Part shown: in pieces, positions 1,564-61,492 of the stretch
How positions within the stretch are numbered: position 1 is the first letter of the stretch
How the letters are laid out: the number at the start of each line of letters is the position of its first letter
DNA from: Verrucomicrobiota bacterium
GTDB lineage: Bacteria > Verrucomicrobiota > Verrucomicrobiia > Limisphaerales > UBA11358
NCBI GenBank assembly: GCA_036803685.1
Contig: DAIRTX010000006.1
Coordinates: forward strand, 3,797-67,796
Reading direction: 5' to 3'
DNA: 64,000 bases
The notes under the pieces: generated by a model
Told to the model about the DNA's origin: nothing
The model's database searches: none
The model's input: only the letters and a program-made list of their open reading frames with translations
Translations under genes and position numbers: made by a program

Positions 1564-4580
<3,017 letters not shown>

Positions 4581-13300: not shown

Positions 13301-16300
13301 CTAAAATAATCCCAGAATCAAAAATTTGATGTCCACTCTGGTCATAAATGACCATCTGATCCGGTTCAATGTTATAGAAATTGTAGAAAATGCTCAGCGT
13401 GCCGGTGGTCGGAGACACATTGATAATGTTGGTACCCCCCTCTGGACCGCCGGTGGACGAGACCGGGATGATGTTGGTGACGGCGAAGGTCGCGCCCATG
13501 CCGTTGGTGGTGGTGCCGCCGCGATTTTCCACGAGCAGACAACGTGTCCCATCCGGGCTGATCAAATGGAACACCAAATCGGACACGCGCTGATGATCCA
13601 CGCGCAAAGCGGCTTCCACCGACGAAATGGTCTGGGCCGCCGTCACAAAAATGGAATTCGTCATCACGGCGTCGTCCAGAATCGGCGTCGGGCCGCTGGA
13701 ACTGAAAATCACCTGCCCCGGCACCGCGCCCATACCGAACTTCGCGATAACATACACCGTCTGCGGAAGTATGCTCTCGTTGTACAAACCGACCCAGTAA
13801 CGGCCCGGCGGCAGCGGCGGGCCGATGGAAATGGAGCCGTCAAAACCCAGAAGCCCGCTGTTGGTCAGCCTCGCCGGCCCGAATTCATTGGTGTCCGTCA
13901 GTGTCGGTATGGCGCCGACTTTGACGAACAGATCCACCTGCCCGGTCCCGGTCAGGTTCGTGGCGTAGATCGTCAAATTGGTCGCGCCGGCGGGCACATC
14001 AATGAAATCGCGGAACCAACCCAGCGGCCCGAGGGTGGTGGTGATTCCCTTGGTCAGGTCCTGGTGCGGCTCAATCAACATTTGGAAGCCGGTCACGCTG
14101 CCGGTCTGGGTCAGCGAATCGTCCACTTCGGTCAAAATCCACGGGCCAATGGCTTGCTGGCCGACGTAATCGTTCAAACTGCCCGGTCCGTCGGACGGTT
14201 GCGAACCGACAATGTCTCCCTGCCCGCTGTTGTCATAAATAATCGTGTAAGGTCCGGGCGGATTGCCGAGTGAATCGTGATTGTTCAATACCGTCGTCCG
14301 CGACAGCCCGTTCTGGCCGCCGTGTGTCAGCGTCCCGAGGAGGTCGCCGAAATTCTGGTGCGTGATCGTGCTGGTCACGGTGCCGCGCTTGATTTCCATT
14401 GGATTTATGGCGAGGGCGAAAACGTATCCCACACCCGGATGCGCCGGACTGCCGTCGGGGATGTTGACCGGCAGCACCAGGCCGTTGACGATCTGGCTGC
14501 CGTTCGGGTTCATCTGGCTGAACGGGATGTCGGTGAAGATGGGAATAAATCCGTATTCCGATGCCTCCTGATCCTCCGAATACACGCCGACGTAATAAAC
14601 CTTGCCGGGCGCGGAATTGGTGTAATAGACGAACTCGATGCCTCCACGACCGACCGATTTATCCGCGTTGGAAATGACGACGGGGTCCAGGTTCATCAGC
14701 CCCGGATTGCTGCTGACGTAAAGGTCAATGTCCGCTTCGGGCCGCGTGGCGTTGGCCACTGTGTCTTCAAACACACCCATGCGCGGAATCGAGAGCGTGT
14801 CGGGAATGAAGGTGATGAACGCGGCGTTGGTGAAATCCGCCGCGCCGGTGTTGGTGATCACGTAGAAATGCCACTGGTTCGTCATGCCGAGCGTGACCAG
14901 CACGTTCGTGCCACCCAGTTGGATGCCGTTCAATTCCGTGCCCCCGGCGGTCAGTTGAATCGTGTTTGTGCCGAGCAGCGGCGTGCTCGCGCCGACGAAT
15001 TGATTCAACAACGGCGCGTTCGTCGTGGTCACAAAAGTCATTTGCTGGTCAGACGTGGGATTGGAAATGATCGGATTGTCCGTCGCCGTGAACGCGTTGG
15101 TGACCTCGCCGTTGCCGATGGAAATCACGAGCGCGAAATCCTGCACCACGTTGTTGGTGTGGGCGGTGACGGCGTTGACGTTGACGCGATAACCCAAAAC
15201 CGTGACGGAGAAGTTCGTGCCGGCACCCGGCGGCAGATAAACATTTTCAACATTGTTGATGGCATCGTAATTCGGCGCGTTCGTGCTGCTCTGCGCCGAA
15301 CTGAAGGTGCTCGATGCCGGGAAGTCGTTGCCGTAATAGACGATGGGATTGGTCGGATTGCTGAGATTGGTGACGACGAGGTTGAGATCGTTCACGAGCT
15401 TGATGGCGGCGGCCGGGTCGCCGGGCGGATCCGTCCATGCCAGCGTGATGCGCAACGGCAATGCCGCCGCCGCACTGGCAATAGTAAGGTGGTAGGTATG
15501 GCTGTCGCCCGTGGCCAGCGCGCTGGCCGGACTCTGGTCGAGAACAAGCATCGCCTCGCCGGTTGCGTTATTCACGTTCGTCGTGATTCCGGGTGGCAGC
15601 GAATTGGGCAGGTTAATCAACCCCCAACCTTGGTAATTGATCGAGTTTTGAGCCTGGAAATCGTAGTTCCCATCGGGCCGCGCACCGTTGATGAGCATTG
15701 CCTTGAGCAACGCCGGGCTGGGCGTAGTGTGCAGCGTGTTGGTGAAGTAATCCTGCATTAACACCAGCACACCGGACACATCCGCCGCCGACATGCTCGT
15801 GCCGGATTCGTAACGGTAGTAATGCGGAGGAACCAGCGAGTCCGGATCTCCGCCCAGCGAATTGTTCAAATTGCTCAACACCGTGTAATAATTTCCAAGG
15901 TCGTTCGTTGTGATGATTTCAGTAATAATATCGTAGTTGACCAGAAAGTTGTTGGTGTTACCCACTGCATACCAGAACCCGACGTTCTGGATATCCAGGA
16001 TGCTCGCGATGGCACCGCCGCTGTCCGGTGGAATGGAAACCTCGTTGTCGCCGGTCACGAAATCGTAAGTGTTGGTGGTCGGCAAATCCGCCTGCTCCAC
16101 ATAGATCGGCATGTTCGGCGGGAATGGCGGTGGCGAAAGAATGTTCGGGACAACTTGAATCATGACACCGACGGCGTTTCCGGGAACGAAAATGTTGTAA
16201 TAATTCAACGTTTGGGGAGCCACGGCCTGCTTGACGAATTCGGCAAAGTGATAATTCGTCGGGTTGTAATACGCCTTTTCGTCCCATTGCTGCGATCTGG

Positions 16301-18290: not shown

Positions 18291-21200
18291 TCAATCCGGC
18301 GGCAAAATGTTAAAGCTCTCGATGACGGCGTTGTTGTTCGTCACGACCGGAACACTGAACCAATGTGTGCCAAAAACATCGCTGGTGCTGCTAACGACAT
18401 TGGTCAAACTGCTGCCAAAGCGCACGACGGCGCGGGTAGCGATTTCCGACACAACCTGATAATTCGTGACCATGCCGAAAAACTGCCCACCGCCGGTGTA
18501 AATTGAATTCGGCGCGGGTTTGAGCGCCTGGCCGTAACAATAAATCACATAGCGCGGCGAACCGCTCACGCGCAGCAGCGACATCACCTGCTGCGGCAGC
18601 CATTCCATCAGCTCGTCGCTGATTTGCGCATTCGGGTCAAGCCCGGCGAGGAACGGCGATTGTTCCGTCAGCGCCGGCACGGCCAGAATGTCGCCCACAT
18701 GCGTGAAGCTCTGTAGTGGAAACAATTTGGTGTTCGCGCGAATATCGTTGATGCCGTTGGTGCCGTTCTGCACCAGATAACCCAAACACAGCGGCGAATT
18801 TGGACTTGGTGGAGGACCGACAGGCACAGGCGCACCGGCGGGACCGGCCGGATTGATGACCGTGTAAGTATTGGTGAGGCTCGTCGGCACGATAATGCCG
18901 CTGAACAAGGCCGACCAAGCGGCGAGGTTGGCGTTGGTCGGACCCACATTGACCGAAAGCTGGCCGCGCGTGGCATTGTCATTGAACGCGGTGGTGAATA
19001 GGTCGAACAACAGCCGGTCCTGCACCGGAGCGGAGTTCGTAGCATCAATTGAATTTCCGTTGCCAGTCCAAGTCGTCCAAGTGGCGGTGTAATTGGTCAA
19101 AGTCAAAATGTTCGTCGCTTTGAGGAAGACGGTTTGCCACGGCGTGCCGCGATGGACGCGGCCCAGCCAGCCGACGGTCGGGAATTTGTTGGTCGGGAAA
19201 TCCCAATTGTCCGATTGCCACATCAGCGGATCTTTGAACGCGAAATTGTAGGGATTCGGGTCAAAGTTCGTGGACATGAGAGTTCTTCCCCACGGTTGGT
19301 AACGATTATTCAAAATACCAAAGGTGGGCCTGGGCAAATTCGCGGACTTGTTCCACTGGCTTGTTCCGGTTGGCGGCTTGGTATCCTGCCCGGAATAATT
19401 CAAGTCGCTCGCCAAATAATGAACCAAGGGGTCGTTTGCCTGCCATGAAATAAATTCAAAAATAATCCGCATTGGCGTGAAGGGAACCTGCTGGCTCAGG
19501 TTGGTGTTGACCACGGAACTTTTGCCATTTATCGGCGGGCTTAACTGTTTGGGGTTCCCCTTATAAAAAAATGCATCAAAAAACGGCTTCTCAAGCGCTC
19601 CGTACGTATTGTCCCATGTGCCTCCCGCATTCGACGGCAAATCAGCCAACCCCCTTGAAACATTAATTTGATTCACAACTCCATACGGTTTTGAGCTGTT
19701 TAAATAAGCATTCGTGCTCCACATATACGCCGGATCACCAACCGAGTAAGGATCCTGAAGTTCATTATTTAGATCACGGCTGCTGTCCGGACCGGCGAAA
19801 TGGGCATAATCAATGACGTGATTGCCATCAATGATAATCACCTGCAAGCGATTCGTTGTCCGCAAACCAAAGTGCGGCAGTTGCAAAATGCCGGTGTCTA
19901 AAAAGTTGGAGGGATCCAGAGACTGGGGAATGAAACAAGGCGGAGTATACCCCGGCACAGCGCTGGAACTATAATCATAGACGGAGTTGGTGAGCAAAAC
20001 GACCGTCGAAACCGTCGGGTTCAATGGAATGAAAAACGAGTCCGTCTGTGGCTGGCCATTGGGCTGAGGATAACTGCTGCTCCATGCAGAACCCGGCCAC
20101 AAGTTGGTTGAGAAGGTGTTGGTGAAACCACCGTTGATGATCCGCGGCGTTGAAAAGCCCGGAGCATCATTCATCAACACCATCGAGATGTTGTCGCGGA
20201 CCAACCCCTGAATCGAAGTCAACCTGACATAATCGGAGTTATACGAGTTCCAAAGTTCGGCACCGAGGGAGTTGCTGACGCTGAAAATATACATTTGGTT
20301 GGTTGTAATGGCCCCCGCGATGGTCTGGCGCGTCACCTGCAGTTTACGCTCCACCTGCACAACGTTTTGCATCGTAAACTCGTTGAAGTTCGGGAAACCC
20401 TTCTTTGCACCAATAATCCACGGGACACCATAAATGTTCACGGCTAAATTGGTGACCACACCGCTCATCGCCGCCAAAACGGAGGCGTCAATCGGTTGCG
20501 CGAGTTGCCAGTCGCTCAATCCCGAAACCAACAGTACGACATTCGTATAGCCGCTGATAAAAACATTCGTGCCCCGGCCGTCGGCGTCCCGCGAAAAGAC
20601 CGGGCGGAACACAGACGGATAATTGTTGCCCAGCGCAAATGTGTTATTCGTCGTCGCATCGTAAATGTTGGCGGCGAGCTGGAGCACGCGGTTCACAGCG
20701 GGTGAATAAACGAACTGGTTGCTCACCAAAACCGGAATGTTCCCGATGCCAAAGGCGGGGTAGTTGGCCCATAGGGACGGATTAAAAAACATCGGACTGA
20801 AATCGGTCACGCTGTAAAACGTGGTGGCGAAGTTGGTGGGATTGCTGTTGCGCCACTGGGTGGTGTAGGCGCGCAGCATCCGGTCGGCGGCGTTGGTGAA
20901 AAACGCCAGCGGCTGCCACATGAAGAAATTCGTGGAGGAGGCGACGCCGTTGGTGTTCAAAAATCCATTCAAAACCGGATCAAGATTGTCGTAATTGAGG
21001 TTCATCTTGCCCGAGTCCGGCGTGGTGTCCGTGCCGAGTTGCGAGAGCAGCCGGTAAAACGTGTAGCGGTCGTAGGTGGAGACGTTCGTGCCAGCCTGTT
21101 TCAAATGGTCAATAAAGCCGGGCGGTGTCACGTTCAGTTCCGTCTTGTTCGGGTCGAACAAATCTGATGGCGTGAAATAATGGTTGGTATTGTCCGCGCC

Positions 21201-22394
21201 GGCCCACAGCAAAGTGGGATTGTCGGCCACGAAATCCGCATTCGTATTAAATGTGGTCTGCAACGGTCCATCGCTGTAACCGTCGATGTTATCGTTTCGG
21301 AAGGCAATGTCACCGGGACCGCCGAGGCCGCCAAATAATGTGTCCACGTTGGCCAGCGTGTTGTAGTTGAAATTATAACGGTAGTTCAGGATCGAGAAGG
21401 CGTCGTTAAAAGCCGCTCCGCCATTCGCAAAACCGATGGGCCGTTTATATTGGTATGCGCCACCAAGCAACGGGTTGTCCCACTCATTCGTATTCAAATC
21501 GGCCAGGAACGCAGCCAAGTTGATTTCCCAAGAGCCGACGCCTTGGTTACGGAAATAGCCATCGTTTACAAGATTCAAAGGCAGATTATTCTCCTGCAAT
21601 GTTTGATTGTGAATGGCGTTCAAGTCGAGCGTGTTGCCGACGGGCACGGTAATGAAGGCATAGCGCGCAATGAATTTGTTGTTCGGACCGTAAGGCGCGT
21701 CGGGTCGCTCCAACACCCCAATCCATTCCGGGTCGCCGACCATCACATTGCTCCGCGTGTTTCCGGGAATGATATTCGGCATGGTGTTGCCGTTGTTATC
21801 GTAATATGGATTGAGTGGATCCGGACTAATGACCGGCAGCAGGCCGTTGGCGTCAAACTTTGCGTTGCGATTGAGATCGAGGTAAAAGCGGAAATCGTTT
21901 GAGCCGACGGAGTTGGTGACGATGAAAACCGGCGGACGCGGGCTGACATACAAATTGGTCAAGTCGCCCGGCAGGTTGGTAAAATTCAACGGCCAGCCAT
22001 TCGTCGAGACGAGCAGGCTGAAGTTGTAGGGATTGGTGGTGGAAAGGACGTTGGCGATGACCTGGGCCTCGGCGTTGGCCAGCGCGGCGTCGGCGGCCAG
22101 CCGCGCGCTGGCGGTGTCGGTGACGGTGGTGACGGCGCTGCGTTCACGGCGGCTCAAGGCCAGAAAGGTGATGGCCATGAACGTCACCACGGACAGCAAA
22201 ATCAGCGTGATGATGAGGGCGACGCCGCGGCGGGAAGGCTGAAGGCCGCGTTGCGAGGGACGAGAAGAACGGAAACATCGAACATCGAACTCCGAACTTC
22301 CAACATCGAATATGAAATTTAAGCCATCGTGACGGCGTTCGATGTTCGGCGTTCGGCGTTCAGCGTTCGATGTTCGTTTGGTTCTCATTCTCAT
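18291..22394 (-). CDS. Large PilX/GspK-class minor pilin (Verru_Chthon cassette A-like)
   Basis: RRG|VALIITLILLSVVTFMAITFLAL without Glu5, last pilin of the series, 1367 aa, ATGA-coupled to the upstream gene. Confidence 0.8.
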   Translation of the reverse strand: MRMRTKRTSNAERRTPNIERRHDGLNFIFDVGSSEFDVRCFRSSRPSQRGLQPSRRGVALIITLILLSVVTFMAITFLALSRRERSAVTTVTDTASARLAADAALANAEAQVIANVLSTTNPYNFSLLVSTNGWPLNFTNLPGDLTNLYVSPRPPVFIVTNSVGSNDFRFYLDLNRNAKFDANGLLPVISPDPLNPYYDNNGNTMPNIIPGNTRSNVMVGDPEWIGVLERPDAPYGPNNKFIARYAFITVPVGNTLDLNAIHNQTLQENNLPLNLVNDGYFRNQGVGSWEINLAAFLADLNTNEWDNPLLGGAYQYKRPIGFANGGAAFNDAFSILNYRYNFNYNTLANVDTLFGGLGGPGDIAFRNDNIDGYSDGPLQTTFNTNADFVADNPTLLWAGADNTNHYFTPSDLFDPNKTELNVTPPGFIDHLKQAGTNVSTYDRYTFYRLLSQLGTDTTPDSGKMNLNYDNLDPVLNGFLNTNGVASSTNFFMWQPLAFFTNAADRMLRAYTTQWRNSNPTNFATTFYSVTDFSPMFFNPSLWANYPAFGIGNIPVLVSNQFVYSPAVNRVLQLAANIYDATTNNTFALGNNYPSVFRPVFSRDADGRGTNVFISGYTNVVLLVSGLSDWQLAQPIDASVLAAMSGVVTNLAVNIYGVPWIIGAKKGFPNFNEFTMQNVVQVERKLQVTRQTIAGAITTNQMYIFSVSNSLGAELWNSYNSDYVRLTSIQGLVRDNISMVLMNDAPGFSTPRIINGGFTNTFSTNLWPGSAWSSSYPQPNGQPQTDSFFIPLNPTVSTVVLLTNSVYDYSSSAVPGYTPPCFIPQSLDPSNFLDTGILQLPHFGLRTTNRLQVIIIDGNHVIDYAHFAGPDSSRDLNNELQDPYSVGDPAYMWSTNAYLNSSKPYGVVNQINVSRGLADLPSNAGGTWDNTYGALEKPFFDAFFYKGNPKQLSPPINGKSSVVNTNLSQQVPFTPMRIIFEFISWQANDPLVHYLASDLNYSGQDTKPPTGTSQWNKSANLPRPTFGILNNRYQPWGRTLMSTNFDPNPYNFAFKDPLMWQSDNWDFPTNKFPTVGWLGRVHRGTPWQTVFLKATNILTLTNYTATWTTWTGNGNSIDATNSAPVQDRLLFDLFTTAFNDNATRGQLSVNVGPTNANLAAWSALFSGIIVPTSLTNTYTVINPAGPAGAPVPVGPPPSPNSPLCLGYLVQNGTNGINDIRANTKLFPLQSFTHVGDILAVPALTEQSPFLAGLDPNAQISDELMEWLPQQVMSLLRVSGSPRYVIYCYGQALKPAPNSIYTGGGQFFGMVTNYQVVSEIATRAVVRFGSSLTNVVSSTSDVFGTHWFSVPVVTNNNAVIESFNILPPD
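22274..22376. repeat. Inverted blocks of heptamer repeats in the PilX-like leader
   Basis: AACATCG-type x5 (22274-22310) and CG(G/A)(C/T)GTT-type x6 (22333-22376), encoding NAERRTPNIERR and FDVGSSEFDVRC. Confidence 0.8.
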
Positions 22395-23389
22395 TGATAG
22401 GCCGAGGGGTCAACGTTGCGAATCCAGACGCGCTGCCGGAACAGGTGAACCTGGCCGACGTGATTCGACAAGTAAGCCATTTGCGCCGTTGGATTATTAG
22501 CGAGCGATTCGGCGCGCTGGAGCGTGCGGTCTTCGAGCAAACCCAATTGGATTTCCACGGACGCGGGCAGCGTGTTGCTGAACATGTAAAATCCAACCTC
22601 GCCCAGCACCGGCGACGAATACCAGACGTTTCTGGCTGTGTTTGTGTATCCGAACGGGTAGCCATTAGTCATCCAATAGCCATTGTTGTCGTAAGCGCGC
22701 ACCGTCAAATGCACCACGCCGTCCATCAAATGGCTCATGATGCTGGTGTTGGTCCAGGCGGCAAAGAAGACGGCGTTCGTAAAAGCCTTGTAAAGCGCTG
22801 CGGGACCGGCGGCGGCCAGCACATTGGTCGTCATGGAAAAACGGTAAAGCGGGTTGATGGAGTTTGCATTGGTCGTGTCCACCACGTAACCGGTGCCCGT
22901 CCATGTCGTGTTCTGGCGCGTGAGGATGAAGAAATTTTCCAGCACGTTGGTCCGCGTTTGCGCGCTGCCGGCCAACGATTGCCCCAGCGGCCCGATTTGG
23001 GATTGATACTGGAATTGATTGGGATTGGCGTAAAAATTCACCGCGACATTGCTGACGCCAAACGACGGGGCCATTGGTTCCAAATCGCTTTTGATCAGCC
23101 CCATCACGCTGCGGCCGCCTTCCAGCACGTCGGTCTGCGTGATGCTCGCGCGAAACGCGGCCTGCGTGCTGCTGAACACCGCCATCAACGCCAGCACGAT
23201 GAGCGCCATCAACACCACCACCACGAGAATTTCGACCAGGGTGAAGGCATTTGTGCCGGAGGGACGAGCTATGCGAGTCCCTGATCTCCGCAAAGGAAAA
23301 GAGGTCCATTGGGGACTCGTGTAACTCGTCCCTCCGAACGGGGACTCGTGTAACTCGTCCCTCCGAACGGTCAGGCCAAAATGTTGCAT
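22391..23389 (-). CDS. PilW/GspJ-like prepilin
   Basis: TNA|FTLVEILVVVVLMALIVLALMAVF. Start placed at ATG 23389, preceded by AGGA just after the upstream stop. Confidence 0.85.
   Translation of the reverse strand: MQHFGLTVRRDELHESPFGGTSYTSPQWTSFPLRRSGTRIARPSGTNAFTLVEILVVVVLMALIVLALMAVFSSTQAAFRASITQTDVLEGGRSVMGLIKSDLEPMAPSFGVSNVAVNFYANPNQFQYQSQIGPLGQSLAGSAQTRTNVLENFFILTRQNTTWTGTGYVVDTTNANSINPLYRFSMTTNVLAAAGPAALYKAFTNAVFFAAWTNTSIMSHLMDGVVHLTVRAYDNNGYWMTNGYPFGYTNTARNVWYSSPVLGEVGFYMFSNTLPASVEIQLGLLEDRTLQRAESLANNPTAQMAYLSNHVGQVHLFRQRVWIRNVDPSAYQ
23258..23367. repeat. GGAGGGACGAGTTACACGAGTCCC inverted-repeat element in pilin leader
   Basis: Left arm 23258-23281; right arm tandemly duplicated 23311-23367. 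Confidence 0.85.
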
Positions 23390-23397
23390 TCCTGTTT

Positions 23398-24498
23398 TCA
23401 CGGCGTGTTGACGAAGGATTGGGACGCGTAAAAATAAAAATTGTTGTAGATGGGGTCCGGGGCCAGTTGTCCGGCGACCATGGTGCGAAAGGTCTGGCGG
23501 CCGGGGCCTACTTTGCCGTTGGGCAGTTGCGGCCAGAGAAACGTCAGCCGCAACTCGTGCAGGTTGGCGGCGAGTTCCTGGGGGTAAAGAATCCGTGCCC
23601 ACCTAACTGAACTATCGGGAACATCGCTCGATTGTGGCGGCAGAGGCGGTTGCCCTGCGACGATTGCCTGCCAATAAGAATAAGTTGTCTGTCCGGGCAA
23701 GATGTAAGAAACATAGTCGCCCCCGTTGTATGACTTAGGCAGCCAGAGTGGAGGAGTATTCATTGTGATCGGCGTTGTGATCGGCGCGTTGACGCACAGG
23801 ATGCGGTAGCCGAAAGAATCTTCCCGAATGATGCTGTCGTTGGGTTGCGGCGGCTTTTCCACCGCCGGCCCACTGATGGAACGGACATAGGCGACGACGT
23901 GGTTGCTGATGCCGCCGTTAATCAAAGTCGGAATCGGCAAGCCGTTGACATCCAGATATTCCGGTGTGCTCAAAAGCCCCACGATGCGGAAGCCGTTGGT
24001 GATGGGAAAAAAGGGAGCGGACGATGGCCATGTTACCTGCGAAGCAGAGTAAGTGTAACCATTGGCGCCCGAAACATGGGTGGTGATATTTGTCCAGTAA
24101 TTCGTGATGGCATAGACGTAATTGGTCAGGTCGTCCAGGCCGCGCGCGCCGCCACGGATGGCCTCCATCAAAACGGTTGCGTCCTGATTGATGATGGTTT
24201 CCTCGCGGTTGTCCCGCTGCGTGTTCATGCCAATGGGCAGGACGCCGATGATGGCGACGAGCGCGATGCCGATGACCGCCAAGCTGATGGCAATCTCGAC
24301 CATGGTGAAGCCGCTGACATCGGAGGGGCGAGTTACACGAGTCCCTAATTCGGAAGGACGAGTTACACAAGTCCCTAATCTTGGATGATAAAAAGAACCT
24401 GATTGGGGACTCGTGTAACTTGTCCCTCCGAAAATCGTCCCTCCGAAAGCGCCATTCGGGCGACACGCCTTGTGAAAATATGTCTGGCAAATTTTCAT
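23398..24498 (-). CDS. PilV/GspI-like prepilin
   Basis: VSG|FTMVEIAISLAVIGIALVAIIGVL after a 63-aa leader. ATGA overlap with the upstream gene. Confidence 0.85.
   Translation of the reverse strand: MKICQTYFHKACRPNGAFGGTIFGGTSYTSPQSGSFYHPRLGTCVTRPSELGTRVTRPSDVSGFTMVEIAISLAVIGIALVAIIGVLPIGMNTQRDNREETIINQDATVLMEAIRGGARGLDDLTNYVYAITNYWTNITTHVSGANGYTYSASQVTWPSSAPFFPITNGFRIVGLLSTPEYLDVNGLPIPTLINGGISNHVVAYVRSISGPAVEKPPQPNDSIIREDSFGYRILCVNAPITTPITMNTPPLWLPKSYNGGDYVSYILPGQTTYSYWQAIVAGQPPLPPQSSDVPDSSVRWARILYPQELAANLHELRLTFLWPQLPNGKVGPGRQTFRTMVAGQLAPDPIYNNFYFYASQSFVNTP
24320..24448. repeat. Same inverted-repeat element in pilin leader (left arm duplicated)
   Basis: TCGGAGGGGCGAGTTACACGAGTCCCTAAT-like arms at 24320 and 24350; opposite arm at 24405-24430. 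Confidence 0.85.
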
Positions 24499-25385
24499 GG
24501 CGCCATCTTTTGATATTCCAAAACGGCGCGGCCCGTCAGCCGGTCAATGTGAACGATGTTGTAGGAGGAATTGGTGCTGTTGCCGGGCGGATTTTCCGCC
24601 ACGTCGGGCGAGCCTGGATCGGGCGGTATGGGCAGTAAAAAAGCCTTGGTCACCGGGTCTTTCACGACCAACACGCTACCCTTCGCAATCGGGATGTATT
24701 CGTCCCGGCCGGCAACCGTCTGCCCATCAACCGTCAGTTGACCGAGATAATTGAACGCGAGGCAGGGAAAGATCAACGATGTGTTGGTGGCGGTGGGAAA
24801 GGGTATGGCATTGGTGGCAAAGCCGTAGATGTCGTACGATTTAACGGAGTTTATCAAATCGGTGATGATGTAAGGTGGACCAGCCAGCGAATTGGTGAAC
24901 TTCGTCCAAGCGATGAACGTGCCGTCGGGCAGACTTTGCCACGGAGCAAGATAATGCCAGGCGTGTTGTCCCGGCTGGTCGCCCATCGCACCACGAGCGA
25001 TGAAAGTGTAGCCGGTCAATTGCTTGTCGCACAAGTTGGTGACGGCGGTTTGCTGGGCGGGAGCCAGGGTGCTCCACCAAGCGCTGTTGTTCCAGAAATT
25101 CGCCGGCATAAAAACCATATAGACCGTCGTGTGCTGGCTGATGGCCAGTTGGCGCGCGCGGGCGACACCGTCGAGCAACTGGCGCGAGGCGCCGAGGGTG
25201 GCGTCCGACTTGGCGAAATTTTTGAGCACCGGCACGGTCAACGCCGCCATAATGCCGAGGATGGCAATCACCACCAACATCTCGATGAGCGTGAAGGCGG
25301 ACCAGGCAAAGGCTGAAGGCTGAAGGCTGAAGGCTGAAACCTTCTTCCGCGCCGGGCGCGCAAACTTTATTTTAGACTTTAGCAT
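24495..25385 (-). CDS. FimT/GspH-like prepilin
   Basis: WSA|FTLIEMLVVIAILGIMAALTVPVL..ARQLAISQHTTVYMVF, and a C-terminal IDRLTGR motif. Leader has AAGGCTG x4 (25309-25338). Confidence 0.85.
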   Translation of the reverse strand: MLKSKIKFARPARKKVSAFSLQPSAFAWSAFTLIEMLVVIAILGIMAALTVPVLKNFAKSDATLGASRQLLDGVARARQLAISQHTTVYMVFMPANFWNNSAWWSTLAPAQQTAVTNLCDKQLTGYTFIARGAMGDQPGQHAWHYLAPWQSLPDGTFIAWTKFTNSLAGPPYIITDLINSVKSYDIYGFATNAIPFPTATNTSLIFPCLAFNYLGQLTVDGQTVAGRDEYIPIAKGSVLVVKDPVTKAFLLPIPPDPGSPDVAENPPGNSTNSSYNIVHIDRLTGRAVLEYQKMAP

Positions 25386-25406
25386 TTAGCCTTTAGCTTT
25401 TTTTTA

Positions 25407-26336
25407 TTATTGCCAGCTCAGGACGTTGTCCCTGTTTTCACGGTCATCAGCGGGTTCGACGGGATCAATCTTCCGGTTTGGCCCGGCGGACCAGACCATG
25501 ACCTTGCCGTGATATAAGTAATTATCGGCGGTATTATTTGGATTAACCAAACCGTTTAGGCCGGGATTTGAATTCTGGGCGGCGGGAGCAGGAGGAGAAG
25601 ATACCAGGGTCTGACTGTAAAACGCATCCTTGCACTGCTCGTCGTAGCTTAAATCCATGCTGATGACGTAGGGACTGCCCCAGGGGTCCCGATAAACGCC
25701 GGTGATATCCACGCCTCCCGGCGGCTGCGGGTCGGGATTCGACGGGTCATAGCCCGACATTTTGGCATTCAGGAAAATGGTCTGCTGCGGATTTTTGACA
25801 TGGTTAAAATTCACGTTTTGGTGGGTGACGGCATTTGTCGTAACGTCCATCAAAATGGCGATCACTTCGGCGTTGTTGGTCTGATAGTTGTAGGTGGCAG
25901 GATTTTGGACGGTATAAGGGACCGTGGGAGTTTGAAACACGCCGCCATAGGTAAAATCGCCATTAGCCGTCGAGGCCGCGCTTTGCGCCGCGGTGGAAAC
26001 CGGAAAGCGGCCATAGACGGAATCATATTGTTGGATGGCGCCGACAATCTGGCTCATCTCCACCACGGCCTGCTTTTTCTGCGCGCTGATTTTGGCTCTC
26101 GACAACACCGGCAGGAGCAGCGCCGCCAGGATGCCGATGATGGCGATGACCACGAGCAATTCGACGATGGTGAAGGCGGAAGCGTGAAACGTGAAACGTG
26201 AAACGTGACGAGAACGCAGATCGCACGGCGCAGCGTTCGGTTTGCTCTCGACTCCTTGGCGCGGCGAAGCGCAGCGAAGACGGCTCGACGCTCGACTTTC
26301 GTCTGTCTGATAATTTTTCATAGCAATGGTTTTCAT
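25407..26336 (-). CDS. GspG-like prepilin/pseudopilin
   Basis: ASA|[29 protein letters not shown] motif. Leader has CGTGAAA x3.7 (26183-26208). Confidence 0.88.
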   Translation of the reverse strand: MKTIAMKNYQTDESRASSRLRCASPRQGVESKPNAAPCDLRSRHVSRFTFHASAFTIVELLVVIAIIGILAALLLPVLSRAKISAQKKQAVVEMSQIVGAIQQYDSVYGRFPVSTAAQSAASTANGDFTYGGVFQTPTVPYTVQNPATYNYQTNNAEVIAILMDVTTNAVTHQNVNFNHVKNPQQTIFLNAKMSGYDPSNPDPQPPGGVDITGVYRDPWGSPYVISMDLSYDEQCKDAFYSQTLVSSPPAPAAQNSNPGLNGLVNPNNTADNYLYHGKVMVWSAGPNRKIDPVEPADDRENRDNVLSWQ

Positions 26337-26417
26337 GGATTTAAAAAAACAGGGTTGAGGCGGGTGATCGTTTTGTTGCCAGTGGCCGGAACGCGGGCGC
26401 AGCTTGATACTGCCCCT

Positions 26418-26488
26418 GTTCGGAGTTCCGCCTTCAGGCGGTTTGGCTGGACATCCGCATTTGGCCGCCTAAAGGCGGAACTCCAAAC
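26418..26488. repeat. REP-like inverted repeat
   Basis: GGAGTTCCGCCTTCAGGCGG ... CCGCCTAAAGGCGGAACTCC. A related half-copy lies near 58020-58048. Confidence 0.7.
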
Positions 26489-26621
26489 GAAATTGCACGT
26501 TTGCGTGGGGGCAGTACCGGATTGCACCACGATGCGCGGAGACCACGCGCAATCGCGCCAGTCAACGGCGATGGAATATTCGCGGCCGGGTCCAGATTTT
26601 CGCGCAACGCACATAAAAAGT

Positions 26622-27446
26622 TCAGGGCAACGGGCTGTTAATCTGCACTTGTTTGGTCCAGTTGCAGATGAGATTGAGTTTATTGGTCGAGCCAATCGAA
26701 AGCTGGATCCACAACTCATACGAGCCGGGATTGTTGGTCGGGTTCGATGAATTGTAGCGCCAGGGATTTACGTCCGGCTGGCCCAACAACGGCTGGTAGA
26801 TGGCGTCCGGCCCGCCGACGGCGGTGATCAGCAGGTTTACCCCGTTTACCCCAGTGTCGCTGTTTGTAAAATTGTAAACCTGGTTCGGCTTCAAATCCGG
26901 GAGAAAATTCCTGGCCACGGAAGCGTCCTCACCACCAGCAGACTTGCTGCAATTCATAAAGCCATCCACGCCAAACGTCTTGTCCACGACGCTGCTAGCA
27001 GTGCCGCCAGTCAAGGTGGGCAGGCTGCCATCCAAAGATTGATAGACTGGACTGGCTGAGGGGTTAATGTTGGTCGTTCCAGTCAGCTCATAATAAAGCT
27101 GATTTATCAGGGGATTGATGGGATTTTTCTGATTGTCCGGCGGATAAAAGCCATAGGCGGCCTTGTAGCGGTCAATGGCCGTCTCCAACTTCGCCATTTC
27201 CGCCTGGGTGTTGAAAATGTACTGGCGCTTTTTTACCGCGCCCACCACCGGGAAAAGCAGCGCGGCCAAAACACCCATGATGGCGATGACGACGAGCAGT
27301 TCGATCAAAGTGAAAGCGCTGGCATCGGAGGGACGAGTTACACGAGTCCCTAATTTGAAATGATAAAAAGAGCAAGGTTGGGGGCTCGTGTAACTCGCCC
27401 CTCCGAAAATCGACTCTCGACTCTTGACTGTCTGATTAGTTTTCAT
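26622..27446 (-). CDS. GspG-like prepilin/pseudopilin
   Basis: ASA|[43 protein letters not shown] 27446 overlaps the antitoxin stop (ATGA). Confidence 0.88.
   Translation of the reverse strand: MKTNQTVKSRESIFGGASYTSPQPCSFYHFKLGTRVTRPSDASAFTLIELLVVIAIMGVLAALLFPVVGAVKKRQYIFNTQAEMAKLETAIDRYKAAYGFYPPDNQKNPINPLINQLYYELTGTTNINPSASPVYQSLDGSLPTLTGGTASSVVDKTFGVDGFMNCSKSAGGEDASVARNFLPDLKPNQVYNFTNSDTGVNGVNLLITAVGGPDAIYQPLLGQPDVNPWRYNSSNPTNNPGSYELWIQLSIGSTNKLNLICNWTKQVQINSPLP
27325..27406. repeat. Third copy of the GGAGGGACGAGTTACACGAGTCCC inverted-repeat element in a pilin leader
   Basis: Arms at about 27325-27350 and 27380-27406. Internal spacer resembles that of the 24320 copy. Confidence 0.85.
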
Positions 27447-27730
27447 TTTTCGCGCAATTCGTCTTCCATTCTTTCGCTGAGCCATTGCTTGATCATGCTC
27501 TGATAATTCAAATACCGCGACCGGGCGAGCCGCTTGATCCGCGCCAGCATCCGCGGGTCAATCCGCAGCGTGATGGTCACGGACTCGGCGGCTTCCGCGT
27601 TGCCGGCCGTGGCCGCCTCCATCAGGCGCAAGTCCGGCCGGTTCTCCACCCAAAATTCCGCCTCGGCCTCTTCGCTGTCGAAGAGCGGCACCTCTTCCCA
27701 ATTGGCAAAAGTTCGCACAACAAAAATCAC
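27443..27730 (-). CDS. CopG/BrnA-like ribbon-helix-helix antitoxin
   Basis: VPLFDSEEAEAEFW..SVTITLRIDPRMLARIKRLARSRYLNYQSMIKQWLSE. Confidence 0.75.
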   Translation of the reverse strand: MIFVVRTFANWEEVPLFDSEEAEAEFWVENRPDLRLMEAATAGNAEAAESVTITLRIDPRMLARIKRLARSRYLNYQSMIKQWLSERMEDELREK

Positions 27731-27780
27731 GTTTCACGTTTCACGCACCTGTCCTCCATGGCGCGCAGCGCGACGGAGGA

Positions 27781-28077
27781 TCACTTCTCACCGGCATTCA
27801 AAGTCCGGTCCAGTTTCCGCTGATAAAAGAACCGTTCTTCCGGTTCAAAAACGCGGGCGCGCAACACCCGCGCCACCCGGCCGTTGGTCCGATACACGCT
27901 GAAAATTCCGATCCCGCCCGCCGACATTCCCAGGCTGAAAAAGCGCGCCTGCACGCCAAATCGCGGCGAGTCCGGCAACAGCCGAATGGCAAACGGGTCC
28001 TCAAAGGACTCTTCAATTTCCCGCTGAGTCAAAGAACCATCCAACTCAAAGGGCGGATTGTTCCAATCGAACTCCAT
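27781..28077 (-). CDS. BrnT/DUF497-like toxin (divergent)
   Basis: MEFDW..EESFEDP..RFFSLG..RVLRAR..EERFFY pattern, directly upstream of the RHH antitoxin. Confidence 0.65.
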   Translation of the reverse strand: MEFDWNNPPFELDGSLTQREIEESFEDPFAIRLLPDSPRFGVQARFFSLGMSAGGIGIFSVYRTNGRVARVLRARVFEPEERFFYQRKLDRTLNAGEK

Positions 28078-28111
28078 AACGAGTTAGCTGTAAATAAAAC
28101 GCCCATGCACA

Positions 28112-28159
28112 TGCAATGTCTTTACATTGTATTTACGCACAGGCATCACATTTTGTCAA
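28112..28159 (-). promoter_or_regulatory. Putative promoter and operator for the TA-pilin transcript
   Basis: TTGACA on the minus strand (28154-28159). Inverted repeat CAATGT-N4-ACATTG at 28114-28129. Confidence 0.45.
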
Positions 28160-28208
28160 GTTTTTTGCGTCTTTTCCAGAGACAAACGGCCTTTGAGGCG
28201 GTCGCCGG

Positions 28209-29519
28209 TCAGTCACCGCCAGCACCACCACCTTCACCGCTCAGGCTGGTGATCATCTGAATCAGGGGCAGGAACATCGCAATGACGATGCTGCCAACAA
28301 CGACGGCCAGGAAAACAATCATAATGGGTTCCAAAAGCGAGGTCATGGAGGCCACGGCATTGTCCACTTCCTCGTCGTAATTGTCGGAAATTTTCAGAAG
28401 CATTTCCGGCAAGGCGCCGGTTTGTTCGCCGACGTCCACCATGCTGACCACCATGGGCGGGAAAACACCGGAGGCCTCCAGCGGCGCGGTGATGGTTTCG
28501 CCTTCTTTCACGCTTTCATGCACGCCGGCGATGGCGTTGCTGATGATGACGTTGCCGGCGGTTTCCTTGACAATGGTCAGCGCCTGCAAAATGGGAACAC
28601 CGCTGCTGACGAGTGTGCCCAGTGTGCGGGTGAAACGGGCGATGGACACCCGGCTGATGACCGGCCCCAAAACCGGCATTTTGAGTTTGACCTTGTCCCA
28701 GACATAACGCCCGATTTTTGTTTTGATGGCCAACATGAACAAAACCACCACCACCGTCACCGCTCCAACTGTTTGCAGCATGTGGAGTCTGATGGCGTCA
28801 CTGATCGCCAGCACAAACAGGGTGAACCACGGCATCTTGATCTGCATGCCGGCGAAAACCTCCTTGAACTTGGGAACCACCATGACCATCAACAAAATCA
28901 GAATGCCCGCCGCCACGATGAGCACCGCCACCGGATAAAACAGCGCGGCCTTGACCTTGCCTTTGATCTTCTGCGCCTTTTCGGAAAATTCCGCCAGGCG
29001 TTTCAACACCACTTCCAATACGCCGCCCAATTCGCCCGCCTTGATCATGTTCACGAACAAGCGGTTGAAAACTTTTGGATGCTGCGCCAGCGCCTCGGAA
29101 AACGTGCTGCCGCCTTCAATGGACAGCGCCAGTTCGCCGAGAACTTTTTTGAGCACGCCGCTGCGTTCCTGCTTTTCGAGCACGCGCAGTCCGCGCAAGA
29201 GCGGCAGACCCGCGTCCACCAGCGTCGCCAATTGCCGCGTGAACGCGGTCAGAACCTTCGGTTTGACCCTTCCGCCCAACCCCGGGATGGTGATGTTGAG
29301 GTTGAGGGCGCCGCCTTTTTTGCCGCCGGCCCGGGCTGCGGACCGGGTTTTCTTTTGAGATGACTTTTTATACTGACCTTTTTCGGTTTCCACGATTTTG
29401 GTCGGGAACAAGCCCATTTCCTTGACCCGGCCAATGGCCTCGTTCTGGCTGGCGACTTCAACCGTGCCTTTCGTTTCCTTGCCACGGTTGTCCAAAGCGA
29501 CGTAATCGTATTTCGGCAT
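28209..29519 (-). CDS. pilC: Type IV pilus/T2SS platform protein (PilC/GspF)
   Basis: FTRQLATLVDAGLPLLRGL, GELGGVLE, GEQTGALPEML, LLEPIMIVFL motifs. Confidence 0.95.
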   Translation of the reverse strand: MPKYDYVALDNRGKETKGTVEVASQNEAIGRVKEMGLFPTKIVETEKGQYKKSSQKKTRSAARAGGKKGGALNLNITIPGLGGRVKPKVLTAFTRQLATLVDAGLPLLRGLRVLEKQERSGVLKKVLGELALSIEGGSTFSEALAQHPKVFNRLFVNMIKAGELGGVLEVVLKRLAEFSEKAQKIKGKVKAALFYPVAVLIVAAGILILLMVMVVPKFKEVFAGMQIKMPWFTLFVLAISDAIRLHMLQTVGAVTVVVVLFMLAIKTKIGRYVWDKVKLKMPVLGPVISRVSIARFTRTLGTLVSSGVPILQALTIVKETAGNVIISNAIAGVHESVKEGETITAPLEASGVFPPMVVSMVDVGEQTGALPEMLLKISDNYDEEVDNAVASMTSLLEPIMIVFLAVVVGSIVIAMFLPLIQMITSLSGEGGGAGGD

Positions 29520-29552
29520 AACAAATTGGTTCAGCCCCGAACGCGTTCGGGG

Positions 29553-31262
29553 TTACGTGTATTTGACGACTTCCTCGATAGTAGTATCACCTTCAAAGAT
29601 GCTGCGCAAGCCGTCCTCGCGCAGCGGCACCATGCCCAGCTCGATCGCCTTTTGCCGCAACACGATCGTCGGCGCGCGCTCGTTGATCAACACCCGGATC
29701 GCCTCGCTGATGATGAGCAGTTCAAAAATGCCTTTCCGCCCCTTGTAGCCGGTGTCGTTGCACACCGAGCAGCCGCGGCCGTAATGAAAGACCTTGTCGC
29801 CCAAATCGTGCGCCGAAAGATTCAACAGGGCCAGTTGATCATCCGTCGGCTCGAACGGCGTCCGGCAATTCTTGCAAATGGTCCGCACCAGCCGCTGCGC
29901 CAGTACGGCCATCAGCGTCGAAGAAATCAAAAACGGCTCAATGCCCATGTCAATCAGGCGCGTCACCGCGCCCGTCGCGTCATTGGTGTGGAGCGTGCTC
30001 AGGACCAGGTGGCCGGTCAGCGACGCCTGAATGGAAATTTGCGCGGTTTCCAAATCGCGCATTTCACCCACCATGATGATGTCCGGGTCCTGGCGCAAAA
30101 ACGACCGCAACGCCTTGCCAAAGGTCATCCCCACCGCTTCGTTGATGGCGACCTGCATGATGCCTTCGATGTCGTATTCGACCGGGTCCTCGGCGGTGAG
30201 CAATTTGGAATCAATCGTATTGACCCGCCGCATGCAGGAATAAAGCGTCGTCGTTTTGCCCGAGCCGGTGGGCCCCGTCACGATAAGAATTCCATTGGGC
30301 CGCTGAACCGCCTCGGACACATAATCATGCAGGTATTTGGGAAATCCCAGCGTGTCGAGGTCGAGATTGACCGAAGCGCGGTCGAGCACGCGCAACACGA
30401 CGGATTCGCCGAAGAGCGTCGGCAGCGTGGACACGCGAAGGTCAACCTGGCGGTTGGCCACGGTATAACTGATGCGACCGTCCTGCGGCAGCCGCCGCTC
30501 GGAAATGTTCAGGTTCGACATGACTTTCAGGCGCGAAATCACCGGCAAGGCCAGGTGCTTCGGCGGCGGCGCCATTTCATAAAGCGCGCCGTCCACGCGA
30601 TAACGGATGCGAAATTCGGTTTCAAACGGTTCGAAATGAATGTCGCTCGCGCGGTCCTGGATGGCCTGAAACAAGACCAGGTTCACGAACTTCACGATGG
30701 GCGCCTCGTTAGCCAGGCTCTCGACCAGTTTCACATCATCCGACGCACCCGCTTCGCTGACTTCGCGCTCCATTTCCTTGTCGGAACCGAGTTCCTTGAG
30801 GATTTGCGAAAAATCCTCGGTTTCCTCCTGGCCGTAATGACGGTCAACCGCTTTTTCAATTTCGGCGGGATCGGCCACGACCACTTGCACGTCGCGTTTG
30901 CTGGCAAAACCGATTTCATCCGCGTGCGCCGGATCGAGCGGATCGACCAGCGCGACCTGCAAGATCCCATTGTTCAACGCCACCGGCACGCAATGATACA
31001 TCCGCGCGACATTGGCTGGAATCGTTTTCAAAAGGTCGGGCGAAAATTCATGGTCGCGCAGCGAAACGACCTCCGTGCCCAGATTGCTGGCCATCACCTG
31101 CAGGATGTCGTCGAGCTTCATGATCCCGAAATCCTGCAGGAGCTGGAACACCGGCGCGCCGCTGCGCTTGAGTTCGGTGGCGACTTCCTCGTATTGCAGG
31201 TCGTCGATCAGCCCCTGTCCTTTAACGAGGGACAGCAACGGGTTTGAAATCTCTTCCGCCAT
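29553..31262 (-). CDS. pilB: PilB/GspE extension ATPase
   Basis: [41 protein letters not shown], tetra-Cys motif. Confidence 0.93.
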
Positions 31263-31271
31263 GTTACAAAA

Positions 31272-32366
31272 TCATCCTTTGGACCCGGCCTGGGCCAGTT
31301 CCAATTCCTGCAATTTCTGCAGCACCGTCGTCGGGTCTTGCGCCTTGGTGATCACTTCTTCGCGCGCAATTATGCCCTGCTGGTATTTGTCGATCAGAAA
31401 ACTGTCGAGGGTCACCATGCCGAATTTCGCGCCGGTTTGAATGTCCGAATTGAGGCGGAACGTTTTGTTGTCGCGAATCAACGCGGCAATGGACGGGGTG
31501 TTGACCATGATTTCAAAGACCGCCACGCGGCCCGGCTTGTCAATGCGCGGAATCAGCAGTTGCGAAATCACGGCTTGCAGCACGGTGGAAAGCTGGATGC
31601 GAATTTGCTCCTGCTGATTGTTCGGAAAGGCGTTGACAATACGGTCAACCGTCTTGGCCGCGCCCGTCGTGTGCAGCGTGCCGAAGACCAGGTGACCCGT
31701 TTCCGCCGCGGTGATCGCCGCGTCAATCGTTTCCAGGTCGCGCATTTCACCCACGAGAACCACGTCCGGGTCCATGCGCAGCGCGCGGCGCAATCCTTCG
31801 GCAAAATTCGGCACATCCACGCCGATTTCGCGCTGCGTGACCAGCGCTTTTTTGTGTTTGTGGTAATACTCAATCGGGTCTTCGATGGTGATGATGTGCG
31901 CCTCTTCGCGTTCCTCGTTGATGATGTTGATCATCGAAGCGAGCGTGGTCGTCTTGCCGCAACCGGTGGGTCCCGTTACCAGCACCAACCCGCGCGGTTT
32001 ATAGAGCAGTTCCTTTGCGCTCGGCGGAATGCCGATTTCCTCCATCGTCAGCATTTTGGTCGGAATCTGCCGGAGCACGATGCCGAAGTCGCCCTTGGCC
32101 TTGAAGACGCTCACGCGGAACCGCGCCGCGTCGCCAAAGGCAAAACCGAAGTCCGCCCCGCCGCGTTCGCGCACGCTTTGAATGTGTTCCTCCGACGTGA
32201 TGCTGCGCATCAACTCCTCGGAATCCTCCGGTTTGATCACCGGGCCTTCCACGCGGTGCAAAATGCCATGCACGCGAATGGTCGGCGACACGCCCACGCG
32301 AATATGCAGGTCGGACGCTCCTTCGGCCACGACCAACTGCAACAAATCAGACATCGAGTATGACAT
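31272..32366 (-). CDS. pilT: PilT retraction ATPase
   Basis: [55 protein letters not shown]. Confidence 0.95.
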
Positions 32367-32375
32367 AAAAATTCA

Positions 32376-32462
32376 AATGCAGATTGCCGAATGCCGAATG
32401 CAGAAACTTGCTCCACCAGTTGAATCTGGTTTTATTTCTTCATTCTTCATTTTTCATTCTTC
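32376..32462. repeat. Heptamer tandem repeats between pilB paralogue and pilT
   Basis: AATGC(A/C)G x4 and TT(C/T)TTCA x4. Confidence 0.65.
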
Positions 32463-32469
32463 CGTTCCA

Positions 32470-40995: not shown

Positions 40996-41206
40996 CGGGC
41001 GCCACCGGGCAGCACCACCACCGAACGGGGTGAGCCGGCTTGGTGCCCCGTCCCGCCCTGCGAGACGGTAAAATCATGATGAGCCACAAGGACCGTCCCG
41101 CAAAGCGGGGCGGGACACCGAACGGTGGCAGAGCCAAATGCCCCCGCCATGACCCGACGTTGCAAAAAATCTCGCAACTGAAAACAAAACTGAGAGGATG
41201 CTTTGC

Positions 41207-61376: not shown

Positions 61377-61492
61377 TGAGGTTTGGAACAAAGATGTTAA
61401 GTTAAAAGAGTCACCAGTTCCTATGTGCGCAGGCGTCGGATTTGGGCGCCGAAGAGCCATCAACTGGAAATGACATTGCAAAGAGAAATATT

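Follow-up and report, generated by a model that had tools for sequence, protein, structure and literature searches.

Repeat-filled leaders predicted for the prepilins of a type IV filament gene cluster in a soil Limisphaerales verrucomicrobium

Introduction

Bacterial prepilins carry class III signal peptides: leaders of 6-26 amino acids (aa), below 10 aa in type IVa pilins, that in bacteria invariably end in Gly (PMC4471445). Small repeats placed within genes have been described in other settings. Repetitive extragenic palindromes (REPs) occur inside genes of several species, including the verrucomicrobium Opitutus terrae; these copies are often situated in replication or repair genes, and often close to the N-terminus (Di Nocera et al., 2013; PMC3733652). 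The Rickettsia palindromic elements (RPE), reviewed in PMC10969869, are the classic in-frame case. Tandem TAACTGA heptamers are found at the 5' ends of genes in Beggiatoaceae, Cyanobacteria and Bacteroidetes (PMC4679880). Here we describe a cluster of six pilin-like genes (g1 to g6) in 64 kilobases (kb) of the genome of a soil Limisphaerales verrucomicrobium (contig DAIRTX010000006.1 of assembly GCA_036803685.1; this whole stretch is referred to as the window). The predicted leaders of these genes are unusually long and are occupied by REP-like palindromes and by tandem arrays with a 7-nucleotide (nt) unit.

The leaders resemble class III signal peptides in being hydrophilic and in having a small residue at -1, Phe at +1, Glu at +5 and a hydrophobic helix, and the genes lie beside GspE/PilT/GspF-type genes. 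They differ in length (30-63 aa, as against 6-26 aa; PMC4471445) and in the residue at -1, which is Ala in 70% of cluster genes where Gly is canonical. The palindrome is like intragenic REPs and RPE in being short, GC-rich, imperfect, present in many copies and often dimeric, and in lying in frame at tolerant protein positions, including those of replication and repair genes (here LigA, Mfd and an ImuB-like protein). Unlike those elements, its host site in the cluster is a prepilin leader, from which the insert would be removed by cleavage and so be lost from the mature protein. It also occupies several neighbouring genes with one fixed junction, and its spread between genes occurs within a leader cassette. 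The tag here is CGGA, and any sequence relationship to the GTAG or CGTC superfamilies of REPs is conjectural.

With REP doublets forming hairpins (REPINs), which are mobilised by REP-associated tyrosine transposases (RAYTs), the element shares an imperfect palindrome of 21 nt, a tag of 4 nt that is conserved, pairing in inverted orientation with outward-pointing tags, compensatory changes within arms and hundreds of dispersed copies over a clade. Unlike REPINs, about half of the copies are apparently intragenic and the spacers are highly variable, and a motif search over ~1 Mb of locus fragments found no RAYT gene flanked by this repeat. The arrays match the TAACTGA heptamers in period (7 nt), in length (short arrays of 2-6 units) and in being concentrated towards the 5' ends of genes, and such arrays are present in the 5' untranslated region of the PilT-like gene of this cluster. 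They differ in that many different heptamers are used instead of one, and in that the pilin arrays follow the start codon, appear to be translated, are free of stops and abut the peptidase site. In-frame REPs are already known. As far as we found in the literature, the recurrent use of prepilin leaders, the heptamer enrichment and the copying of cassettes are apparently undescribed.

Results

Leader length and translation

We listed every in-frame ATG, GTG and TTG upstream of the cleavage site. The usable start codons give leaders of 30-63 aa in all six genes (Table 1), in agreement with a preliminary description of this DNA. That description also took gene overlaps as support for the long starts. 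They do provide it, although the overlap at g5 proved to be GTGA, so that there are three ATGA overlaps (g1, g4 and g6) and one GTGA. The start ATG of g1 overlaps the stop codon of an upstream antitoxin-like gene, and orthologues share the MK(T/N) start of g1. No in-frame ATG, GTG or TTG separates the repeats from the cleavage site in g1-g4 and g6; g5 contains a single in-frame TTG, located 16 codons before Phe within the spacer of its palindromic element. At -1, two of the leaders (g4 and g6) have Gly and the other four (g1, g2, g3 and g5) have Ala. The cluster leaders do not conform to the short (6-26 aa), Gly-ending type.

Orthologous clusters were fetched from 25 genomes (26 clusters with the window; 115-116 pilin genes counted), in which g5 shares 48-82% amino acid identity. 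Almost all of their pilin genes have long leaders, and the repeat content differs from genome to genome. Leader contents include SCHVSRVTCH, IRNPQSAIRN, SRPSTLGPRP, (TVDCGPR)n and palindrome families such as ...RLKAELQTA↓F (the arrow marks the predicted cleavage site). Distant orthologues have leaders of 8-16 aa behind the same MK... start, for example MKKIEKRKAESGNVRA↓F.

Several patterns point to translation of the long leaders. Of 115 genes, 92% have an open frame 0 over 30 or more codons ahead of Phe, as against 38% and 47% for the other two frames, and the nearest in-frame ATG lies at a median of 33 codons from Phe. The start context (ATGA/GTGA overlap, MK...) is conserved in orthologues. 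Stop triplets are absent from the consensus units of all 49 leader arrays, as against ~25% expected for random heptamers and ~18% per strand observed among generic 7-nt arrays. Where a unit would read TAA in frame, it is altered by a substitution (from ATCGTAA to ATCGCAA in the orthologous loci L102 and L117). By these sequence criteria the long starts are real and the long leaders are translated, as had been proposed. In locus L144, the public gene call equivalent to g4 (2304-3209) begins at the Met of F-T-M-V-E. The cleavage motif and leader are lost from this call, and automatic annotation of these genes is therefore unreliable.

Heptamer arrays in the leaders

The 7-nt arrays reported earlier for g2, g3 and g6 were recovered by Tandem Repeats Finder (TRF), and g1 also has one. 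Across the orthologous clusters, period-7 arrays occur at 2.82/kb in the 150 nt before Phe and at 0.09/kb elsewhere in the same loci, a ~30-fold difference; the density in other loci is 0.064/kb over 837 kb. No arrays of other periods from 5 to 11 nt were found in leaders. The arrays tend to end 3-19 nt before Phe (mode, 9 nt), and a further group is found close to the start codon. Outside the cluster, prepilin-like genes (n = 8) mostly have leaders of 12-27 aa and no repeats. Most of these have Gly at -1, whereas cluster genes have Ala in 81 and Gly in 35 of 116. Generic 7-nt arrays lie within 30 nt of the next long-ORF (open reading frame) ATG in 33% of cases, compared with 22% of random positions, a measure too crude to conclude from.

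Arrays with a 7-nt period also occur at other sites in the window. Two of them (GAAGAAT-type and TCTGCAT/TCGGCAT-type, 32376-32462) lie in the 5' untranslated region of the PilT-like gene, filling the gap to the upstream GspE-like gene, and the second ends ~10 nt before the PilT-like ATG. Another (AACTCCG, ~5 units, 43278-43313) lies in frame within a gene for a GH95 glycoside hydrolase (41198-43549, + strand), in the stretch that separates the Pfam catalytic domain, which ends at residue 689, from the C-terminal domain, which begins at residue 702.

The palindromic element

The 21-mer GGGACTCGTGTAACTCGTCCC is present in eight copies in the window at up to 3 mismatches, where none is expected by chance, and all eight are in the leaders of g1, g4 and g5. 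An inverted-repeat element common to these three leaders had been noted before. It is indeed present in all three, but as a pair or triple of REP-like palindromes instead of one long repeat. Among the matches listed, with one genome per species scanned, the exact 21-mer occurs in more than 118 loci spread over many genomes, almost all from Limisphaerales/Pedosphaera-type Verrucomicrobiota.

Each arm is an imperfect palindrome, GGGAC-GA-G(T/C)-NNN-(A/G)C-GA-GTCCC, preceded by a nearly invariant CGGA. In 54 distinct arms, pair 9:13 is T-A in 26 and C-G in 21, and pair 4:18 is A-T, G-C or C-G. Double changes number 32, compared with 11.4 ± 3.9 in shuffles, and none of 500 shuffles reached the observed value; 93% of cells in the arm alignment are paired within arms. 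The two arms of one pair often differ in variant, and thus the conserved structure is a small hairpin in each arm and not a long one between arms. We identified 86 arm pairs among the fetched loci, commonly as inverted doublets. Generic inter-arm spacers are 9-60 nt long and unrelated (mean identity 0.50). In its anatomy the element is REP-like: an imperfect palindrome of 21 nt, mostly arranged as inverted pairs. We rejected a miniature inverted-repeat transposable element, as the inner sequence is not conserved and the flanks show no target-site duplication.

By a crude open-frame test, 59 of 114 elements in generic loci are deep within long open frames, and the copies are not predominantly extragenic in the manner of REPs and REPINs. 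Seven intragenic copies were confirmed by Pfam domains on either side in the same frame. The hosts are LigA, ArgS, Mfd, a peptidase U32, a PSCyt/PSD1 protein, a STAND NTPase and an ImuB-like polymerase subunit. Several reading frames are used across the arms (GGTSYTSP, SEGRVTRVP, GTRVTRPSE, DSCNSSLR), and in the frame where the canonical arm gives TAA a stop-free variant is used instead (GLAELVPP). These in-frame copies in ordinary proteins agree with the earlier suggestion that a leader is a safe haven, in the sense of tolerating repeats. Only 3 of 132 exact arms sampled genome-wide adjoin a prepilin motif. The element has no special tie to prepilins, and the targeted insertion at prepilins that had been suggested finds no support in this count.

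The intragenic loci, in essential and housekeeping genes of related genomes, are L023, L054 and L083 (LigA), L034 (ArgS), L078 (Mfd), L081, L038, L010 and L050. In LigA, the NAD-dependent DNA ligase, the insert is in the zinc-finger region at an identical site in three species. Intragenic arms are near-identical while neighbouring codons diverge. The one Y1 transposase that the motif search found is encoded on the + strand of locus L098, from ~4610; it is IS200-like, matches Pfam Y1_Tnp (E = 4.7e-7) and has RAYT-like motifs. Both of its flanks carry a different repeat, translated ...LAGGPPALR, so that it shows no link to the present element, and it may serve to mobilise a different REP family of these genomes.

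A second palindromic family is present in the spacer between g1 and g2 (Table 1). In two relatives it lies inside a leader (g1 of L125 and g3 of L141), where it reads ...GGRLKAELQTA↓F.

Cassette copying and the fixed spacing

The spacers of the g1 and g4 elements are 80% identical, a value reached by 0.08% of generic spacer pairs, and the 12 nt after the element are alike in these two genes. The spacers of L102 g4 and L117 g5 are 83% identical (0.04% of generic pairs). In the closest relative, L119, one and the same leader cassette of ~115 nt is present on g3, g4 and g5. It begins with the TAATAA stops of g2, continues with a CTAAAGN array that contains its own ATG and with a TTCAGCC x4 array, and reaches to the Phe codon, and the old overlapping ATGA/GTGA starts of L119 g4 and g5 now lead straight into stop codons. 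The g3 cassette is conserved in L119, L120, L123, L136 and L138. From the triple cassette and the spacer identities it follows that leader cassettes have been copied between neighbouring pilin genes, junction included. The earlier proposal of gene conversion between leaders gains support from these data, whereas pilin shuffling or antigenic variation does not: the mature parts stay orthologous, and exchange is limited to leader cassettes.

The last arm ends 15 nt before the TTC (Phe) codon in the leaders of g1, g4 and g5; the preliminary description had likewise noted a fixed distance to Phe in three leaders. When the conserved tail TCCG(R) is included, the real end of the palindrome is at 10 nt, which is close to the 9-nt mode of the arrays. 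Every repeat class ends 1-5 codons before Phe, a pattern to be expected if selection acts on the final residues ahead of the cleavage site. Repeats halting about three codons before the cleavage site probably explain the fixed spacing.

Gene cluster and genomic context

The region 18291-34185 (- strand) is a single operon-like block of ATPase genes, a platform gene, a small gene pair and the six pilin-like genes (ORFs and Pfam; Table 1). Three T2SSE genes and a T2SSF gene adjoin the pilin-like genes, and both GspE/PilB-type ATPases have MshEN domains. No prepilin peptidase gene was found among the window ORFs scanned, and an Rfam scan of the whole window at gathering thresholds matched no family.

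Pfam N_methyl matches are over the cut-off for g1-g3 and just under it (21.2 bits) for g4 (18.6) and g5 (17.1). All of g1-g5 have the N-terminal methylation motif (G/A)↓F-(T/S)-(L/M)-(I/V)-E followed by a hydrophobic helix, and g4 and g5 carry F-T-(L/M)-V-E despite their sub-threshold scores. The GspK-like g6 reads ...SRRG↓VALIITL, without Phe at +1 and Glu at +5. The six genes are best read as encoding two G-like major and H/I/J/K-like minor subunits of a type IV filament or type II secretion-like system. A pseudogene or decaying operon was ruled out, as the mature parts are intact and conserved in 25 genomes, and an assembly artefact was ruled out by independent assemblies that are identical.

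The small gene pair between the platform gene and g1 includes an antitoxin-like gene and an upstream gene whose toxin role is suggested by its position. The 3' end of the pair is kept upstream of g1 in orthologous loci of many species (L120-L143). Such a constant location is unusual for an antitoxin-like/toxin-like module. Directly downstream of g6 is a gene (7380-17930, - strand) for a 3516-aa protein with subtilase, P-domain, DUF642, RCC1-repeat and Ig-like regions, which may be a substrate of the filament system or a tip-associated protein. Also present, outside the cluster, is a seventh prepilin-like gene with an N_methyl match (61442-62476, + strand). It has a possible leader of 33-38 aa without detectable repeats, and shorter GTG/TTG starts exist.

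Table 1: Features of the pilin gene cluster. Positions are those of the window; the arrow marks the predicted cleavage site.
Feature	Positions	Strand	Content	Basis
Second GspE-like ATPase	32470-34185	-		Pfam
PilT-like ATPase	31272-32366	-		Pfam
GspE/PilB-like ATPase	29553-31262	-		Pfam
GspF/PilC-like platform protein	28209-29519	-		Pfam
Small two-gene pair	27443-28077	-	between GspF-like gene and g1
Upstream gene of pair	27781-28077	-	putative toxin; without Pfam match
Antitoxin-like gene	27443-27730	-	downstream gene of pair; CopG/BrnA antitoxin families	Pfam
Mature coding parts, six genes	18291-27314	-		Pfam, ORFs
g1 leader	27315-27446	-	44 codons, ATG 27446; MKTNQTVKSRESIFGGASYTSPQPCSFYHFKLGTRVTRPSDASA↓F
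g1 7-nt array	27410-27429	-	AGTCGAG x2.9, just upstream of doublet	TRF
g1 REP-like doublet	27326-27405	-	CGGA + 5' arm 27401-27381, 30-nt spacer, 3' arm 27350-27330 + TCCG
g1 mature part	26622-27314	-
Second palindromic family	26422-26484	-	GGAGTTCCGCCTTTAGGCGG...CCGCCTGAAGGCGGAACTCC; g1-g2 intergenic spacer
g2 leader	26175-26336	-	54 codons (or 49), ATG 26336
g2 7-nt array	26179-26208	-	TCACGTT x4.3, ends 4 nt before Phe codon	TRF
g2 mature part	25407-26174	-
g3 second array	25378-25401	-	CTAAAGN, contains the start ATG
g3 leader	25296-25385	-	30 codons, ATG 25385
g3 7-nt array	25309-25338	-	TTCAGCC x4.3, perfect (100% match)	TRF
g3 mature part	24495-25295	-
g4 leader	24310-24498	-	63 codons, ATG 24498, ATGA overlap with g3
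g4 REP-like triple	24321-24430	-	5' arm 24426-24406; 3' arms 24375-24355, 24345-24325
g4 mature part	23398-24309	-
g5 leader	23246-23401	-	52 codons from GTG 23401 (GTGA overlap with g4), or 48 from ATG 23389
g5 REP-like triple	23257-23365	-	5' arms 23361-23341, 23332-23312; 3' arm 23281-23261
g5 mature part	22391-23245	-
g6 (GspK-like) leader	22224-22394	-	57 codons, ATG 22394, ATGA overlap with g5
g6 7-nt array	22333-22376	-	GAACGCC-type, complementary to the next
g6 7-nt array	22274-22310	-	TTCGATG-type, complementary to the preceding
g6 mature part	18291-22223	-

Discussion

We are moderately confident that these leaders are tolerant, translated and later cleaved segments that have been filled by the genome's own repeats, with cassettes copied between neighbours. 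The long leaders would be translated and then removed by the prepilin peptidase, and constraint would be limited to the first few codons and roughly the last three before the cleavage site. Most of the genes overlap, which leaves little intergenic room; given this and the few constrained codons, the leaders would fill with the genome's two common small repeats. These are the CGGA-tagged REP-like palindrome, which is usually in inverted pairs and is also found in frame in many ordinary proteins, and the tandem 7-nt arrays. The inserts are presumably neutral. Whole cassettes would then pass to a neighbouring pilin gene by non-allelic gene conversion or segmental copying. The distance to Phe would be fixed because leader copies descend from each other with their junction, and because each repeat class stops where selection on the peptidase site begins.

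Some observations weigh against this account of tolerant leaders. We infer both start sites and cleavage from sequence. An in-frame TTG lies inside the element, 16 codons before Phe, in g5 and its L073 orthologue, and the related leaders of L102 (g4) and L117 (g5) have a TTG at 14-15 codons; if used, these would give a leader of ordinary length. In the window, 8 of 8 arms and 6 of 10 period-7 arrays are within ~0.9 kb, and the repeat density in leaders exceeds what tolerance alone predicts, so that some positive force (function or local mutational bias) is possible. Copying among six neighbouring genes explains part of this excess. At least two spacer lineages share the 15-nt spacing, which constraint can explain but which does not prove it. 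The prevalence of Ala at -1 (81 of 116), where reviews give Gly as invariant (PMC4471445), suggests that processing may be atypical. A more active role for the leader, which we consider rather improbable, is that of a 5' cassette, modular and exchangeable, made up of a start region, an array or hairpin and the peptidase site, which the lineage would actively swap between subunit genes, with repeats read by an RNA- or DNA-binding factor that coordinates subunit synthesis or processing. Such a role would account for the ~30-fold excess of heptamers and for the exact junctions.

Other explanations differ in what they require of the repeats. They may be kept for an RNA role, in which hairpins or binding-site arrays in the polycistronic mRNA set subunit amounts via stability, processing or translational coupling, the leader being the sole place for an intercistronic signal in an overlapping operon. 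Consistent with this, strong folding is predicted for four of the six window leaders, at -56 to -72 kcal/mol and with z from -5.8 to -7.6 relative to shuffles (g1, -56 kcal/mol, z -7.2; g4, -72, z -7.6; g5, -66; g6, -59, z -6.4), leaders are more structured than mature coding sequence (Mann-Whitney p = 8e-5), and other non-essential sequence has a far lower density of repeats than the leaders. REPs have been proposed to stabilise mRNA and to act as RNA elements (PMC3733652), TAACTGA heptamers adjoin start codons in Beggiatoaceae (PMC4679880), and the last array upstream of the PilT-like gene ends close to its ATG. Yet z is below -3 in only 20% and below -2 in 33% of 116 leaders, and g2 (z +2.5) and g3 are unstructured. 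Covariation maintains the small hairpin within each arm and not long pairing between arms, one heptamer is used in both orientations (TCACGTT in g2, GTGAAAC upstream of the antitoxin-like gene), and close relatives replace the repeat content wholesale. We regard a general RNA role, of which the earlier idea of hairpins that tune subunit stoichiometry is one form, as unlikely, though by no means negligible. Some leaders may contribute to mRNA stability or coupling, but such a role is not what the leaders have in common. Transposition of the element to a specific target beside the cleavage site, with equal spacing reflecting independent targeted insertions, is a good deal less probable. It would fit the eight of eight leader copies (three in the window, and those in L136, L073, L102 and, twice, L117) with an arm end 15 nt before Phe, the presence of the same spacing in at least two unrelated spacer lineages and the Y1 (IS200-like) transposase gene in the related genome L098. 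It is opposed by the scarcity of exact arms beside prepilin motifs (3 of 132), by the lack of a common motif across lineages in the 12 nt between element and Phe, and by spacer similarity, which shows that, within one genome, the copies found in different leaders arose from each other. The 7-nt arrays and further repeat families reach the same boundary too, with spacings of their own of 1-5 codons, and the L098 transposase is flanked by another repeat.

Two further possibilities concern expression of the genes, and we hold each of them to be very improbable. The 7-nt arrays could be contingency loci, in which slippage by one unit shifts the frame and switches subunits on or off (phase variation). 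A unit of seven is not divisible by three, the arrays are placed after the start codon and ahead of the mature protein, and some are perfect, such as that of g3 (4.3 copies, 100% match). In a small sample, array length did not change in four same-species contigs (99.4-100% identical), and a gapped metagenome search allowing ±3 units gave one hit, of the same length. The g3 leader is exactly 30 codons in six species, and the arrays are short (3-5 units), all of which argues against switching. The long leaders could also be an artefact of open frames, with translation starting near the cleavage site, by a non-canonical codon or re-initiation, and the repeats serving as untranslated spacers. The in-frame TTG of g5-type genes, 14-16 codons before Phe, would suit this, as would the public call that starts g4 at the Met of FTMVE, and open frames over the arms are partly expected, since arms are stop-free in most frames. 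Against it are the lack of ATG, GTG and TTG between repeats and Phe in g1-g4 and g6, the selective openness of frame 0 in 92% of 115 genes, the avoidance of stop triplets in all 49 leader arrays and the substitution of would-be TAA units in L102 and L117. Moreover, a start within FTMVE would remove the conserved cleavage motif. An annotation artefact is unlikely, except possibly for g5.

The reading of the leaders as tolerant, removable segments has several consequences. If the long precursors are made and cleaved, the longest leaders quoted in reviews would be more than doubled, and the prepilin peptidase would accept almost any sequence upstream of about three residues. The leader would then be a natural removable protein segment that absorbs selfish or slippage-prone DNA, and one that neighbouring genes homogenise by copying. 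On the same condition, there are also practical implications. Gene callers mis-start these genes, and one public call truncates g4 into the mature helix. Repeat-derived peptides (GGTSYTSP, GTRVTRPS, SAFSLQPSAF and others) will contaminate protein clustering in the Verrucomicrobiota.

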